Positions 15,217 to 56,200 of a DNA stretch of 64,000 bases are shown one piece after another. Both the position numbers and the translations under genes were made by a program. The DNA comes from Escherichia phage 235Ecol030PP, in the sequence record PP355091.1; one strand, given 5' to 3'. The notes under the pieces are model-generated. The model did not search any database and was not told where the DNA came from. It saw only the letters and a program-made list of their open reading frames with translations. Each line of letters begins with the position of its first letter. Position 1 is the stretch's first letter.

Positions 15217-15224
15217 TATAAATA
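15217..15224 (+). promoter_or_regulatory. late promoter TATAAATA for uvsW
   Basis: Exact TATAAATA about 30 nt before uvsW ATG. Confidence 0.65.
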
Positions 15225-15253: not shown

Positions 15254-16765
15254 ATGACTGACATTAAAGTACATTTTTATGATTTTAGTCACGTGAGAAT
15301 TGATTGTGAAGAAAGTACATTTCATGAACTCCGTGATTTCTTTAGCTTTGAAGCTGATGGGTATCGTTTTAATCCGAAGTACAGATATGGCCACTGGGAT
15401 GGACGAATCCGTCTTTTAGATTATAATCGTCTTCTTCCATTCGGCTTAGTCGGGCAAATTAAAAAGTTCTGTGATAACTTTGGCTATAAAGCCTGGATTG
15501 ACCCACAAATTAATGAAAAAGAAGAATTATCAAGAAAAGATTTTGATGAATGGCTTTCTAAATTAGAAATCTATTCAGGAAATAAAAGAATTGAACCACA
15601 CTGGTATCAAAAAGATGCAGTGTTCGAAGGATTAGTTAATCGTCGTAGAATTCTTAATCTTCCAACATCTGCAGGTAAATCTTTAATTCAAGCTTTGCTT
15701 GCGCGATATTATTTGGAAAATTATGAAGGTAAAATTCTTATCATTGTTCCAACAACTGCTCTGACAACTCAGATGGCTGATGACTTCGTCGACTATCGTC
15801 TATTCAGTCATGCAATGATAAAGAAAATTGGTGGCGGAGCATCAAAAGATGATAAATATAAAAATGATGCACCAGTCGTTGTTGGTACATGGCAAACTGT
15901 AGTTAAACAACCGAAAGAATGGTTCTCACAGTTTGGAATGATGATGAATGATGAATGCCATCTTGCTACAGGAAAAAGTATTTCATCCATCATATCAGGA
16001 TTAAATAACTGCATGTTTAAATTTGGTCTATCAGGTTCATTACGTGATGGCAAAGCCAATATCATGCAGTACGTTGGAATGTTTGGTGAAATATTTAAGC
16101 CAGTAACGACTTCTAAATTAATGGAAGATGGACAAGTAACTGAGTTAAAAATTAATAGTATTTTTCTTCGCTATCCCGATGAGTTCACTACTAAATTAAA
16201 GGGAAAAACTTATCAAGAAGAAATAAAAATTATTACTGGGCTCAGTAAAAGAAATAAATGGATCGCTAAATTAGCTATTAAGCTTGCACAAAAAGATGAA
16301 AACGCTTTTGTCATGTTTAAACATGTATCGCATGGTAAAGCTATTTTCGATTTAATTAAAAATGAATACGATAAAGTTTATTACGTATCAGGGGAAGTTG
16401 ATACCGAAACCCGCAACGTAATGAAAACCTTAGCTGAAAATGGTAAAGGAATAATTATAGTAGCTAGTTATGGTGTATTTTCTACTGGTATTTCAGTTAA
16501 AAATCTGCATCATGTTGTTTTAGCGCACGGCGTTAAATCAAAAATCATTGTATTACAAACAATCGGTCGTGTATTACGTAAGCATGGTTCTAAAACAGTC
16601 GCAACAGTCTGGGACCTCATAGATGACGCGGGCGTCAAGCCAAAATCTGCTAATACGAAAAAGAAATATGTTCATTTGAACTATCTTTTAAAACACGGCA
16701 TTGATCGTATTCAGCGTTACGCAGATGAAAAATTTAATTACGTAATGAAAACAGTCAATTTATAA
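15254..16765 (+). CDS. uvsW: UvsW DNA/RNA helicase
   Basis: 503 aa, begins MTDIKVHFYDFSHVRIDCEE, helicase motifs (PTSAGKS, DECH). Confidence 0.95.
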   Translation: MTDIKVHFYDFSHVRIDCEESTFHELRDFFSFEADGYRFNPKYRYGHWDGRIRLLDYNRLLPFGLVGQIKKFCDNFGYKAWIDPQINEKEELSRKDFDEWLSKLEIYSGNKRIEPHWYQKDAVFEGLVNRRRILNLPTSAGKSLIQALLARYYLENYEGKILIIVPTTALTTQMADDFVDYRLFSHAMIKKIGGGASKDDKYKNDAPVVVGTWQTVVKQPKEWFSQFGMMMNDECHLATGKSISSIISGLNNCMFKFGLSGSLRDGKANIMQYVGMFGEIFKPVTTSKLMEDGQVTELKINSIFLRYPDEFTTKLKGKTYQEEIKIITGLSKRNKWIAKLAIKLAQKDENAFVMFKHVSHGKAIFDLIKNEYDKVYYVSGEVDTETRNVMKTLAENGKGIIIVASYGVFSTGISVKNLHHVVLAHGVKSKIIVLQTIGRVLRKHGSKTVATVWDLIDDAGVKPKSANTKKKYVHLNYLLKHGIDRIQRYADEKFNYVMKTVNL

Positions 16766-18076: not shown

Positions 18077-18473
18077 ATACTCTATTACTGGAAGCCAGTT
18101 GCAGTTTTATCTGCTCAATATCATCAGGGTTATCGATGACCGAAAAGCGTATTTCTACTATCAGAGTATAATCATCATAAACTGGTATCACATTAACTGA
18201 TAATTTATCAATACGTGGCTCATAGTTTCTTACTGCGCTTTCAATATTGCGCTCAACTGTGTCAGCAGTAAGAGGAGTCATATTTTCAAAAAGCTGGTCT
18301 GATAAATCACATCCAAATTCAGGGTCAAACGGTCTTGAACCTTTTCTTGTTGTAATAATTCCCAAAAGACTGTTTTTAATTGACCTTAATCCAAGTGATC
18401 TTGAAACGTCTTTGTTCCAATCCATTTTCATTTCCGGGTCAATATCAGAATAAAGCTTATTAATATTTGCCAT
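18075..18473 (-). CDS. 25: baseplate wedge protein
   Basis: 132 aa as T4 gp25. Confidence 0.92.
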   Translation of the reverse strand: MANINKLYSDIDPEMKMDWNKDVSRSLGLRSIKNSLLGIITTRKGSRPFDPEFGCDLSDQLFENMTPLTADTVERNIESAVRNYEPRIDKLSVNVIPVYDDYTLIVEIRFSVIDNPDDIEQIKLQLASSNRV

Positions 18474-19099
18474 TATAGTAACTCAAAGAACTCTTTGAGA
18501 CCTCTTATTACGTGAGCATGGGTTTTTCCACACTCTGGACATTTAATTGGAACAGCCAAATAAACGGTAGGCTTTAAAAGCATATCTTTTATAGCTACAA
18601 TATCTGACTCTGTGATGATAGAATATAAATCTTCTAGTTCCTTTTCATTTAAGTCTTCAACTGGAATGCTTTCCCCGTTAGCATGAATCGTTTCTATGCA
18701 TGATACTATCATGTGGGCTATATTTTTATCATCAAAAATTTTAGGGTATCGGAATTTAATTTTAATGTCACCCAGTGTATACCAGAGGTCTTCTGGTGCA
18801 TCTATTTGTGTATGTAATAGATTTATATGGGTTGGTATTTCAGTTCCACAGGTGCACTTCCAGGAGTTTTCGTGATTAACTTCGCCGAGAGAATGTGCCC
18901 ATAAATGAATCAGCAGTAGTTCTGATTCTTGGCGGTTTAAATCTTTTGCATTTGTGCAGTCTTTGATTAGCTTTTTAACAATTACTTCTACAGAACCATT
19001 ATTTTTGGCAGTAATAAGTTCTAGATATTCTTTAAGCGTGAATGCGCGACAATTGATTATTTTAGAACCAACTCTCACATCAAATTTGTATTCATACAT
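18473..19099 (-). CDS. 26: baseplate hub protein
   Basis: 208 aa; GGAG SD; late promoter on minus strand at 19121-19128. Confidence 0.88.
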
Positions 19100-19120: not shown

Positions 19121-19128
19121 TATTTATA
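19121..19128 (-). promoter_or_regulatory. late promoter (minus strand) for genes 26/25
   Basis: Plus strand TATTTATA, 22 nt from gene 26 ATG. Confidence 0.65.
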
Positions 19129-19132
19129 AATA
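19125..19132 (+). promoter_or_regulatory. late promoter for gene 51 operon
   Basis: TATAAATA overlapping the divergent minus-strand copy. Confidence 0.65.
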
Positions 19133-19149: not shown

Positions 19150-19899
19150 ATGGCAAACATTATTCGTTGTAAATTACCAGATGGTGTTCATCGTTTTAAA
19201 CCATTTACGGTAGAAGATTATCGAGATTTTTTGTTAGTTCGAAACGATATAGAACATCGGTCACCACAAGAACAAAAAGAAATAATTACTGATTTAATTG
19301 ATGATTATTTTGGAGACTATCCGAAGACTTGGCAACCATTTATATTTTTGCAGGTATTTGTAGGGTCAATAGGTAAAACTAAAGTACCGGTCACATTTAT
19401 ATGTCCAAAATGTAAAAAAGAAAAGACAGTTCCATTTGAAATATATCAAAAAGAATTAAAGGAACCTGTTTTTGATGTAGCTAATGTTAAAATTAAATTA
19501 AAGTTTCCTTCTGAGTTTTATGAAAATAAAGCAAAGATGATTACTGAAAATATTCATTCTGTTCAAGTAGATGAAATTTGGTATGATTGGAAGGAAATTA
19601 GCGAATCAAGTCAAATAGAACTTGTTGATGCCATCGAGATAGAAACATTAGAAAAAATTCTCGATGCAATGAATCCTATTAATTTAACTCTACATATGTC
19701 ATGCTGTAATAAGTATGTAAAAAAATACACTGATATAGTAGATGTGTTTAAGCTATTAGTTAACCCAGATGAGATATTTACTTTTTATCAAATTAATCAC
19801 ACACTCGTAAAAAGTAATTATAGCTTAAATTCAATAATGAAAATGATTCCTGCTGAGCGCGGATTCGTATTAAAACTGATTGAGAAGGATAAACAATAA
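19150..19899 (+). CDS. 51: baseplate hub assembly protein
   Basis: 249 aa, divergent from gene 26 as in T4. Confidence 0.88.
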
Positions 19900-36573: not shown

Positions 36574-36603
36574 ATAATATCACAACTCTACCGTAAAGTA
36601 AAC
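36574..36603 (-). promoter_or_regulatory. early promoter: GTTTAC, 18 nt, TGaTATTAT, bracketed by a 7-bp inverted repeat
   Basis: Minus strand GTTTACTTTACGGTAGAGTTGTGATATTATGGCTCTACC. Confidence 0.55.
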
Positions 36604-52178: not shown

Positions 52179-53096
52179 TCAAAATTCATTAATGCTATTA
52201 GTTAATTTAGAAAGACCCGCTTTTACAAAATATGAATAAATTTTGCCACGCGGTGGTAATTTATATGAATTATAGTAATTCACAATGTTTGAAGCAATAT
52301 TATCAGGAATATAATCAAAATCAATTAGAACTAAATTTTCTTTATAACGATTATATTCAGATTCAGTGAGAAGCACCTTAGCTTGCTCACGATCATTAGC
52401 AATAGCTTCAACGATTGAAGTTTTCATTGAAGGAGTTCGTTCACCTTCAACTCTGGTAAACCAAAAGTCAGATCGTACTTTAACTGAAGCAACGTTATCC
52501 TTTTTGTCGCCTTTAAGGATTTTAGTCATACAGTCAATTTCAGCAGAACCGCTTTTAATTTTAACCCATTTCTTATGCATCGGTGACCATTGCTTAACAT
52601 TTGGATATTTGTGAAGCTGTGTAAAGTCACCATCCGATGAAATGATTAAAATCTTGTGTCCTTCTAAAGAGAACTTTTTAACAAGAACAGCAATGTGGTC
52701 ATCTGCTTCATACTTATCAATATCCATAACAATGTATGGCATATAAGCTTTCAATTCATCTATAACTTTATGGCTGGATTCAAAATAACCTTCCCAGTCC
52801 CAAGTAGATTCTTCTCGTGCTTTTCCACGGTTTTTCTTGTAATAGTAAGCAAAATCACGACGCCAATATCCAGATTTCGCGTTATCAATACACAGCACAA
52901 TTTTAGTGTATCCAAGCGTTTTTGCTTTTTTGACATTAAACTTAATTGAGTTCAATATCAAATGACGAACCATTGATAAATTAATTTTTTCTTTATCCGG
53001 GAAGTTTACTAGAGCAGTTGAAAGCGCAATTTGACTAAAGTCAATTAAGCAGATTCCTTCTTTGTAATCTTCATCCAACATCATTTCTAAATCCAT
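52179..53096 (-). CDS. rnh: RNase H (5'-3' exonuclease / flap endonuclease)
   Basis: Start set to ATG 53096 (MDLEMM, 305 aa, GAGG SD; track start is TTG). Confidence 0.9.
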   Translation of the reverse strand: MDLEMMLDEDYKEGICLIDFSQIALSTALVNFPDKEKINLSMVRHLILNSIKFNVKKAKTLGYTKIVLCIDNAKSGYWRRDFAYYYKKNRGKAREESTWDWEGYFESSHKVIDELKAYMPYIVMDIDKYEADDHIAVLVKKFSLEGHKILIISSDGDFTQLHKYPNVKQWSPMHKKWVKIKSGSAEIDCMTKILKGDKKDNVASVKVRSDFWFTRVEGERTPSMKTSIVEAIANDREQAKVLLTESEYNRYKENLVLIDFDYIPDNIASNIVNYYNSYKLPPRGKIYSYFVKAGLSKLTNSINEF

Positions 53097-53125
53097 ATGA
53101 ACCTCGTTCAATTAGTGAGATTTCT

Positions 53126-53155
53126 ATTATATACTATCTAAATCTTAAAGTAAAC
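53126..53155 (-). promoter_or_regulatory. early promoter for rnh: GTTTAC, 18 nt, TATAAT
   Basis: Minus strand GTTTAC...TATAAT about 23 nt upstream of rnh ATG with GAGG SD. Confidence 0.55.
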
Positions 53156-53158
53156 AGG

Positions 53159-53166
53159 TATAAATA
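53159..53166 (+). promoter_or_regulatory. late promoter TATAAATA for gene 34
   Basis: Exact TATAAATA about 35 nt before ATG. Confidence 0.7.
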
Positions 53167-53200
53167 CTTATTATTGAAAACACAATAGGAGCCCGGGAGA

Positions 53201-56200
53201 ATGGCCGAGATTAAAAGAAAGTTCAGAGCAGAAGATGGTCTGGACGCAGGTGGCGATAAAATAATCAACGTAGCTTTAGCTGATCGTACCGTAGGAACTG
53301 ACGGTGTTAACGTTGATTACTTAATTCAAGAAAACACAGTTCAACAATATGATCCAACTCGTGGATATTTAAAAGATTTTGTAATCATTTATAATAATCG
53401 TTTTTGGGCAGCAACGGATGATATTCCAAAACCTGCTGGAAATTTTAATAGAATTCGTTGGAAAGCATTACGTACTGATGCTGTATATACAACCGTATCA
53501 TCTGGACCATATCAATTAAAATCCGGAGAAGCAATTTCAGTAGATACATCAGTTGGCAATGACATTGAGTTTACTTTACCACCTTCTCCGCTTGATGGAG
53601 AAACCGTAATAATTCAAGATATCGGTGGAAAACCTGGCATAAATCAGGTTAAAATAAATTCTTCAAATCAGAGTATTGTCAATTTTAGAGGTGAACAGGT
53701 ACGTTCAGTTTTAATGACTCATCCAAAGTCACAGATGGTATTCATTTTTAATAATCGTTTGTGGCAAATGTATGTTGCTGATTATAGCAGAGAAGCTGCG
53801 ATTGTTACTCCATCGACTGCATATCAAGCACAATCTAATGATTTTATCGTGCGTAGATTTACTTCCGCTGCGCCGATTAATGTTAAGCTTCCAAGATTTG
53901 CTAATCATGGCGATATTATTAATTTCGTCGATTTAGATAAATTAAATCCACTTTATCATACAATTGTCACGACATATGATGAAACGACGTCAGTGCAAGA
54001 AGTTGGAACTCATTCCATTGAAGGCCGTACAACGATTGACGGTTTCTTGATGTTTGATGATAATGAGAAATTGTGGAGATTGTTTGACGGGGATAGTAAA
54101 GCACGTTTACGTATTATAACAACTAATTCTAATATTCGTCCAAATGAAGAAGTCATGGTGTTTGGTGCGAATAATGGAACACCCCAAACAATTGAACTTC
54201 AGCTTCCGACTGATATTTCTGTTGGTGATACTGTCAAAATTTCCATGAATTACATGAGAAAAGGACAAACAGTTAAAATCAAAGCTGCAGGTGAAGATAA
54301 AATTGCTTCTTCAGTTCAATTGCTGCAATTCCCAAAACGTTCAGAATATCCGCCTGAAGCTGAATGGGTAAAAGTTCAAGAATTAGTTTTTAATGGTGAA
54401 ACTAATTATGTTCCAGTTTTGGAGCTTGCTTATATTGAAGATTCTGATGGAAAATATTGGGTTGTACAGCAAAACGTTCCAACTGTAGAAAGAGTAGATT
54501 CTTTAAATGATTCTACTAGAGCAAGATTAGGCGTAATTGCTTTAGCTACACAAGCTCAAGCTAATGTCGATTTAGAAAATTCTCCACAAAAAGAATTAGC
54601 AATTACTCCAGAAACGTTAGCTAATCGTACTGCTACTGAAACTCGTAGAGGTATTGCAAGAATAGCAACTACTGCTCAAGTGAATCAGAACACCACATTC
54701 TCTTTTGCTGATGATATTATCATTACTCCTAAAAAGCTGAATGAAAGAACTGCTACAGAAACTCGTAGAGGTGTTGCTGAAATTGCTACGCAGCAAGAAA
54801 CTAATGCAGGTACTGATGATACTACAATCATTACTCCTAAAAAGCTTCAAGCTCGTCAAGGTTCTGAATCATTATCTGGTATTGTAACTTTTGTATCTAC
54901 TGCAGGTGCTACTCCAGCTTCTAGTCGTGAATTAAATGGTACAAATGTTTATAATAAAAACACTAATAATTTAGTTGTTTCGCCTAAAGCTTTGGATCAG
55001 TATAAAGCTACGCCTACTCAACAGGGTGCAGTAATTTTAGCAGTTGAAAGTGAAGTAATTGCTGGACAAAGTCAGCAAGGATGGGCAAATGCTGTTGTAA
55101 CGCCAGAAACGTTACATAAAAAGACATCAACTGATGCAAGAATTGGTTTAATTGAAATTGCTACACAAAGTGAAGTTAATACAGGAACTGACTATACTCG
55201 TGCAGTCACTCCTAAAACTTTAAATGACCGTAGAGCAACTGAAAGTTTAAGTGGTATAGCTGAAATTGCTACACAAGTTGAATTCGACGCAGGCGTCGAC
55301 GATACTCGTATCTCTACACCATTAAAAATTAAAACTAGATTTAATAGTACTGATCGTACTTCTGTTGTTGCTCTATCTGGATTAGTTGAATCAGGAACTC
55401 TCTGGGACCATTATACCCTTAATATTCTTGAAGCAAATGAGACACAGCGTGGTACACTTCGTGTAGCTACACAAGTTGAAGCTGCTGCAGGAAAATTAGA
55501 TAATGTTTTAATAACTCCTAAAAAGCTTTTAGGTACTAAATCTACTGAAGCACAAGAAGGTGTTATTAAAGTTGCAACTCGGTCTGAAACTGTAACTGGA
55601 ACGTCAGCAAATACTGCTGTATCTCCAAAAAATTTAAAATGGATTGTGCAGAGTGAACCTACTTGGGCAGCTACTACTGCGATAAGAGGTTTTGTTAAAA
55701 CCTCATCTGGTTCAATTACGTTCGTTGGTAATGATACGGTAGGTTCAACACAGCCATTAGAATCATATGAGAAAAATGGTTATGCAGTATCACCATATGA
55801 ATTAAATCGCGTATTAGCAAATTATTTGCCATTAAAAGCAAAAGCTGTAGATAGTAATTTATTAGATGGTCTAGATTCGCTCCAGTTCATTCGTAGGGAC
55901 ATTGCACAAACAGTTAATGGTTCACTAACCTTAACCCAACAAACGAATCTGAGTGCCCCTCTTGTATCATCTAGTACTGCTGCATTCGGTGGATCAGTTT
56001 CAGCAAATAGTACATTAACTATTTCTAATACTGGAACGGCAACTCGTCTGATTTTTGAGAAAGGACCTCAAACTGGAACAAACCCAGCTCAAACGATGAC
56101 AGTCAGAGTGTGGGGAAATCAATTTAGTGGGGAATCAGACACAACACGTTCTACCGTATTTGAAGTTAGTGATGAAACGTCTAGTCATTTTTATTCTCAG

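Follow-up and report, generated by a model that had tools for sequence, protein, structure and literature searches.

Early rnh and late gene 34 promoters abut in a divergent spacer of a Tequatrovirus genome, probably as independent promoters brought together by compaction

Does the overlap of two promoters that serve different periods of infection regulate anything? The question arises between rnh and gene 34 of Escherichia phage 235Ecol030PP (PP355091.1), of which a stretch of 64,000 nucleotides, here called the window, was analysed. The first-pass annotation had placed an early promoter for rnh on the minus strand and a late promoter for gene 34 on the plus strand of this divergent region. 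Both promoters are borne out by our analysis: their elements lie at the positions given in Table 1, the early promoter has a homologue in the T4 promoter Pe148.6, and the late box is conserved. We consider it probable that the early and the late promoter stand back to back as independent units of distinct temporal class, that their timing is set by trans-acting factors, and that their overlap is a by-product of genome compaction which contributes at most a minor sharpening. We thus infer that the overlap as such has no regulatory role.

The phage of the window is a Tequatrovirus and is colinear with T4 over rnh and gene 34. When the 901-nt stretch around the locus was searched, 651 phage records matched, the top identity being 99.2%. 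The two genes are divergent and separated by an intergenic spacer of 104 nt, which differs from that of T4 at three positions, two in the 18-nt spacer of the early promoter and one in the 3-nt gap between the promoters, and at none within the promoter elements. An Rfam search of 52800..53500 at a permissive threshold returned a single meaningless match (E = 0.96), and a repeat search of 53050..53260 returned nothing notable.

The start of rnh deserves a remark of its own. The ATG at 53096, preceded at 5 nt by GAGG, agrees with the T4 annotation, and the program-made list of open reading frames begins the gene at the in-frame TTG 53111, which falls within the predicted 5' leader. A longer form of rnh seems to be used in some records, for example in that of phage IME537, where the coding sequence reaches 15 nt further into the spacer.

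Table 1. Features of the rnh-gene 34 locus, in window coordinates
Feature	Coordinates	Strand	Basis
rnh (RNase H, 5'-3' exonuclease), 305 codons	52179..53096	-	ATG 53096..53094; equals T4 rnh CDS 149787..150704; matches annotated ribonuclease H
rnh Shine-Dalgarno GAGG, 5 nt upstream of ATG	53102..53105	-	sequence; GAGGT in most relatives
Predicted early rnh start, 23-nt leader	53119	-	7 nt below the -10 (AGAAAT between); homologous to T4 150,727
Early -10 TATAAT, no TGn (GTA before it)	53126..53131	-	sequence, sigma-70 scan; invariant in the Tequatrovirus sample
Early -35 region GTTTACT	53149..53155	-	T4 early-type GTTTAC 53155..53150; kept in Tequatrovirus and Mosigvirus
Late promoter box TATAAATA for gene 34	53159..53166	+	sequence; annotated in the LR215724 homologue; kept across genera
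Predicted late gene 34 start, ~29-nt leader	53170..53173 (~53172)	+	late promoter geometry and consensus
Gene 34 Shine-Dalgarno AGGAG, 9 nt upstream of ATG	53187..53191	+	sequence
Gene 34, long tail fibre proximal subunit, 1289 codons	53201..57070	+	list of open reading frames, homology, T4 colinearity

Read on the plus strand, the early promoter appears as gtaaac (53150..53155) and attata (53126..53131), which are GTTTAC and TATAAT on the minus strand. The gap between these two is 18 nt, or 17 nt when it is counted from the sigma-70 hexamer TTTACT. In the sigma-70 scan the site accordingly appears as TTTACT-17-TATAAT (53154..53126, minus strand) and scores 10 of 12 matches, TTTACT sharing four of six positions with TTGACA and five of six with the phage form TTTACA. 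With the -10 hexamer set at -12..-7, the +1 position is 53119. The TGn extension of the -10, which is present in most T4 early promoters, is absent from the rnh promoter; TGn is however common in the T4 early family and not a requirement. Other early-type promoters of the window have GTTTAC in common with it, and three others carry TGTG or TGATG before the -10. T4 early promoters have been described as UP/-35/TGn/-10 promoters (PMC2988021). Going by this general description, contacts of the alpha-CTDs with an UP element would fall into 53156..53179 (-37..-60 of the early promoter), a stretch of about 83% A+T that includes the late box and whose match to the UP consensus is not a clear one.

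T4 has a homologue of the minus-strand promoter, the early promoter Pe148.6. In T4 (NC_000866) the rnh -10 occupies 150,739..150,734, so that T4 position 150,727 matches position 53119 of the window. Patterson-West and colleagues give the Pe148.6 downstream region as map units 150,727 to 146,948, which hold rnh, 33, 59 and 32, and they report by primer extension that Pe148.6 is active 1 min after infection, T4 DNA being transcribed from it in vitro as well (PMC6024815). The first-pass annotation had staked its reading on an early minus-strand start near 53119, and the T4 homologue provides one. Time-resolved RNA-seq moreover places rnh RNA in the early class and the gene 34 protein among the late ones (PMC9697503 Table S2). 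The time-resolved 5' end mapping that the first-pass annotation called for exists for T4, as a dRNA-seq study which gives 150 starts from samples taken at 4, 10 and 20 min (bioRxiv 10.1101/2024.04.04.588121, GSE255091); outside its table of start sites, no coordinate near 150,72x or 150,78x came up in it. The supplements of the DksA paper hold no Pe148.6 data at 12 min and no data on the gene 34 late promoter.

Both promoters and their adjacency are already public knowledge. In the record LR215724 (Yersinia phage fPS-65) the homologous positions are labelled 'predicted early promoter' (minus strand) and 'predicted late promoter' (plus strand), and the early promoter is annotated in MH355584 (phage JB75) too. 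For T4 the present analysis holds nothing new: the early promoter has been published and mapped, the late box is as expected, and both are in a database record.

On the plus strand, the sole copy of TATAAATA in the spacer precedes the ATG of gene 34 (53201) by 34 nt. Judged from the letters, gene 34 has no other candidate promoter, because the neighbouring upstream gene lies on the opposite strand. T4 late genes generally need gp55, gp33 and gp45 as well as replication (PMC2988020). In the late complex, whose box has its centre near -10, the DNA is melted between -12 and +2 (PMC7892883), and a conserved upstream sequence is absent from T4 late promoters or not needed by them (PMC2988020, PMC7892883). 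The plus-strand site TTGAAA-17-GAGAAT (53174..53202, 9 of 12 matches) was considered as a gene 34 promoter and rejected, as its start would be within the coding sequence.

Could these motifs be chance matches in A+T-rich DNA rather than working promoters? The region is indeed rich in A+T and weak matches are common, a simple sigma-70 scan yielding 16 sites in 3 kb as compared to 12.6 expected. However, the exact composite motif GTTTAC-N18-TATAAT occurs once in the 64-kb window, at the rnh site, as compared to an expectation of 0.04. When up to one mismatch is allowed there are four sites as compared to 0.85 expected, and the other three have the look of typical T4 early promoters. The late box TATAAATA has 18 copies in the window, where 8.5 are expected, and 13 of the 18 lie on the plus strand. 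In about 498 Tequatrovirus records a 131-nt stretch is kept at an identity of at least 96%, the flanking coding sequence standing mostly at 90-95%. An alignment of seven Tequatrovirus sequences confines the substitutions to the 18-nt spacer and the 3-nt gap, and the -10, the -35 and the late box are invariant amid this variation. Since, in addition, the homologous T4 promoter has been shown by experiment and gene 34 could have no other promoter, chance matching is an exceedingly improbable account of the two motifs; for the early promoter it is effectively refuted by the T4 primer-extension data.

How, then, are the two promoters arranged? The first-pass annotation had called their elements interleaved. 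The plus-strand order is early -10, early -35, late box, and the elements therefore abut instead. It had also set the early -35 and the late box 4 nt apart, which is correct as a difference of coordinates but not as a gap, for only the three bases AGG (53156..53158) intervene. Its further point, that the two polymerases would occupy overlapping DNA, follows from the geometry. The early -10 (53126..53131) is 27 nt from the late box (53159..53166), and the two starts point outward at a distance of about 53 bp. Relative to the early start, the late box lies at -40..-47; relative to the late start, the early -35 and -10 fall at about -17..-22 and -41..-46, respectively. A sigma-70 holoenzyme with its alpha-CTDs extends to approximately -55 to -60. 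The activated late complex has gp33 near the DNA at -35/-36 and -39 and the gp45 clamp adds 13 bp of upstream footprint (PMC2988020), which takes this complex to about -40 or further. Because two polymerases cover more DNA than separates the starts, it is impossible for both polymerase forms to be bound at once, if footprints are derived from the geometry in this way.

Such an overlap of footprints is unavoidable, because two promoters and two leaders have to fit into 104 nt: subtraction of the 23-nt leader of rnh and the ~29-nt leader of gene 34 leaves about 52 bp, and 36 bp are needed for the early core and 13 bp for the late promoter. The arrangement is not that of a bidirectional promoter with a shared -10, in which the opposite -10 elements overlap and the starts are about 20 bp apart. 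Since the starts point outward, the two RNAs have no sequence in common, and pairing of the rnh and gene 34 RNAs as antisense partners was rejected on this ground.

We envisage the use of the two promoters as follows. Early in infection, unmodified host sigma-70 polymerase would bind at GTTTACT-17-TATAAT, start near 53119 and transcribe rnh together with its downstream genes (in T4: rnh, dsbA, 33, 59 and 32). Shut-off would come with AsiA on sigma region 4 and with ADP-ribosylation of the alpha subunits, which would weaken the rnh promoter. As this promoter lacks TGn, it would be dependent on its -35 and should therefore be sensitive to the remodelling of sigma region 4 by AsiA. After the onset of replication, core polymerase carrying gp55 and gp33 and activated by the gp45 clamp would open TATAAATA, start near 53172 and transcribe the tail-fibre genes. 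The late box would lie in the alpha-CTD zone of the early complex, and the early -35 and -10 would come to lie under gp33 and the gp45 clamp of the late complex.

Why should two complexes that exclude each other not form a working switch? By promoter occlusion, sigma-70 polymerase, alone or with AsiA/MotA, would block the late complexes, and the late complexes would in turn silence residual rnh-dsbA-33 transcription. As gene 33 is part of the rnh operon, occlusion would then give negative feedback on the late co-activator. The footprints must overlap by geometry, and the association of the promoters is kept across the Tevenvirinae and tightened in several genera to 4 bp common to the -10 and the late box. 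Each promoter type is also either strong or strongly activated, and it is in this situation that polymerases compete measurably at divergent promoters of E. coli; at E. coli bidirectional promoters, competition between polymerases was measurable only once one direction was strongly activated (PMC12825309). Finally, Pe148.6 RNA persists at 5 min, by which time late promoters are detectably active (PMC6024815). The activities of the two promoters may for this reason overlap in time, which leaves room for interference. However, primer extension reports RNA that is present and not ongoing initiation. T4 early transcription declines from about 3 min through trans-acting factors, by a mechanism that is incompletely understood (PMC2988021); the incomplete explanation of this shut-off speaks for a contribution of occlusion, but its general onset from about 3 min precedes late transcription. 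Nor is the geometry fixed, given that the gap between -35 and late box varies among relatives (about 0-1, 3 or 17 nt), and spacers of 54-120 nt impose an overlap whatever its function. We therefore regard occlusion as unlikely to be a working switch.

For the same two reasons, that factors in trans bring early transcription down from about 3 min and that the gap is variable, a coupling of rnh shut-off to tail-fibre expression, as put forward in the first-pass annotation, is not needed. It is speculation, neither called for nor contradicted by the present data. The locus lends itself to asking whether late complexes take a local part in the shut-off of an early promoter.

But what keeps Pe148.6 RNA present at 5 min? 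In a motA amber infection this RNA falls, which surprised the authors as they found 'no recognizable Pm sequence' (PMC6024815). Going by sequence, the rnh promoter is possibly a hybrid early/middle promoter with a degenerate MotA box, TTTACTTTA, at which MotA/AsiA polymerase would extend promoter use into the middle period and compete with the late complex. This best MotA-box match in the rnh promoter of the window lies at 53154..53146 on the minus strand (150,754..150,762 in T4 NC_000866), agrees with the consensus at 8 of 9 positions, has an ACTT centre and is 14 nt from TATAAT. A MotA box with an ACTT centre works at the T4 middle promoter P46, and MotA tolerates deviations from the consensus (PMC2988021). 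Relatives carry perfect MotA boxes at the same place upstream of rnh (ATTGCTTTA, TATGCTTCA, TATGCTTTA and ATTGCTTCA), and in the Tequatrovirus IME537 a 2-nt deletion places TTTACTTTA exactly 12 nt from TATAAT.

However, the distance of 14 nt in the window and in T4 is beyond the usual 11-13 nt, and a MotA box of the form (a/t)(a/t)TGCTT(t/c)A at 11-13 nt from the -10 is not found in the rnh promoter of the window. Moreover, a second early-type promoter of the window (36574..36603) has GTTTACTTTA as its -35 region too, and because of this recurrence the resemblance to a MotA box may stem from the early consensus itself. A published list of about 60 T4 middle promoters holds no rnh promoter, and the effect of motA on Pe148.6 RNA could be indirect. 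A hybrid promoter of this kind is conceivable but, in our judgement, rather improbable. As to the deletion in IME537 (MT179807, 21..149), it affects a TATATA run, keeps TATAAT and shortens the sigma-70 spacer to 15 nt; the record is a single one and a sequencing error is possible.

The comparison across the Tevenvirinae comprised 56 T4-like loci collected from IMG/VR by alignment of gp34 N-termini and 12 loci from GenBank phage records. The search was anchored on gp34 because the pattern ATTATA-N17-19-GTAAAC-N0-12-TATAAATA had proved too permissive in IMG/VR, where the matches listed were mostly unrelated A+T-rich contigs. At most loci, rnh on the minus strand faces gene 34 on the plus strand across a spacer of 45-120 nt, in a few cases of up to 275 nt. 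In most spacers the gene 34 ATG is preceded at 22-42 nt by a late box, exact or with one mismatch, and the rnh ATG at about 30-37 nt by a -10 resembling TATAAT.

It is the element upstream of this -10 that differs. Tequatrovirus and Mosigvirus have the early-type GTTTAC. Five Gaprivervirus loci instead have the perfect MotA box ATTGCTTTA 12 nt from TAATAT, overlapping the late box by 1 bp, and two Jiaodavirus loci have the perfect MotA box TATGCTTCA 12-13 nt from the rnh -10. Several T4-like contigs carry the perfect boxes TATGCTTTA and ATTGCTTCA, again at 12-13 nt, and Moonvirus, Gelderlandvirus and Karamvirus carry TTTGCTATT at 12 nt. In Gaprivervirus, Jiaodavirus and others the rnh promoter is of the MotA-box and not of the early type. 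Going by sequence, these boxes would function with MotA, and according to a review various T4-type phages have motA and asiA. The divergent pair is thus conserved across the Tevenvirinae at the sequence level, and the class of the rnh promoter, early or MotA-box, has turned over while the pair stayed joined. Such switching of the rnh promoter between the early and the MotA type among genera may help to explain the MotA dependence of Pe148.6 RNA.

The spacing of the pair has changed as well. In Jiaodavirus, Moonvirus, Gelderlandvirus, Karamvirus and others, the plus strand reads ATTATAAATA, in which TATAAT on the minus strand overlaps TATAAATA on the plus strand by 4 bp. About 22 bp separate the predicted starts of these phages, whose MotA box is within the gene 34 leader; it is to these relatives, and not to the window, that the word interleaved applies. 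No fixed phasing of -35 and late box is maintained: Tequatrovirus and Mosigvirus have 3 nt between the two, contig L163 has about 0-1 nt and phage NHEP36 has 17 nt.

Five T4-like contigs from IMG/VR have an rnh-gene 34 spacer enlarged to 156-275 nt with extra promoter-like sites. Among these sites is a perfect TTTACA-17-TATAAT, at a long distance upstream of rnh on the minus strand, and in some of the contigs the late box takes the variant form AATAAATA in place of TATAAATA.

Does the conservation of the pair speak for a function of the overlap after all? Compaction could explain why the association has been kept across genera, and selection for the association could do so too. On the second account, the gene 34 late promoter would be embedded in the prereplicative promoter of rnh as a conserved Tevenvirinae switch, at which the late complex and the polymerase form serving rnh-dsbA-33, unmodified sigma-70 polymerase in T4 and RB69-like phages and the MotA/AsiA form in others, displace each other. 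If this were true, transcription of the tail-fibre genes and of the late co-activator gene 33 would be mutually exclusive, and promoter class would have turned over with the overlap kept. We hold this to be quite unlikely. Other divergent spacers of the window measure only 50 nt, which supports the reading that we prefer, namely that of independent promoters overlapping by compaction.

Two of these 50-nt divergent spacers are of interest in themselves. The one between 18473..19099 (minus strand) and 19150..19899 (plus strand), by T4 homology the baseplate genes 26 and 51, contains TATTTATAAATA at 19121..19132, which is made up of two TATAAATA boxes on opposite strands with a 4-bp overlap. By its sequence it looks like a bidirectional late promoter, at which two late complexes would compete directly. 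The other lies beside the inh homologue and has a late box at 15217..15224, 29 nt upstream of the plus-strand open reading frame 15254..16765. In T4 the plus-strand neighbour of inh is segE, followed by uvsW, and the 503 codons of the reading frame in the window suggest that segE is absent.

How does the locus compare with known systems? With T4 Pe148.6, the early promoter of the window shares its position relative to rnh, the -10 TATAAT, GTTTAC 18 nt upstream of it and the predicted start, 150,727 corresponding to 53119. The two differ by three substitutions, and activity is known from T4 whereas the promoter described here is known from its sequence. The typical T4 early promoter of reviews has TGn, whereas the rnh promoter lacks it in both the window and T4. 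The late promoter conforms to those of T4 in that an exact 8-bp box precedes the start codon of a classical late gene by 34 nt and no conserved upstream element is needed. Different from these, its upstream flank is made up of the -35 and -10 of another promoter; like its early neighbour, it is known here from sequence. T4 middle promoters, which combine a MotA box at -30 with a sigma-70 -10, are resembled by the rnh promoters of Gaprivervirus, Jiaodavirus and several T4-like contigs, whereas the window has GTTTAC at -35 and a MotA-like match of only 8 of 9 positions at a spacing of 14 nt. Finally, the locus is like bacterial divergent and bidirectional promoters in that binding of one polymerase excludes the other. 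In the bacterial bidirectional promoters, however, one holoenzyme picks its orientation on a shared -10 with starts about 20 bp apart, whereas in the window the -10 elements are not shared, the starts are about 53 bp apart, and the two directions are served by different specificity factors at different times of infection. The symmetric type with a shared -10 is resembled instead by those relatives in which ATTATAAATA is at once the minus-strand TATAAT and the plus-strand TATAAATA.
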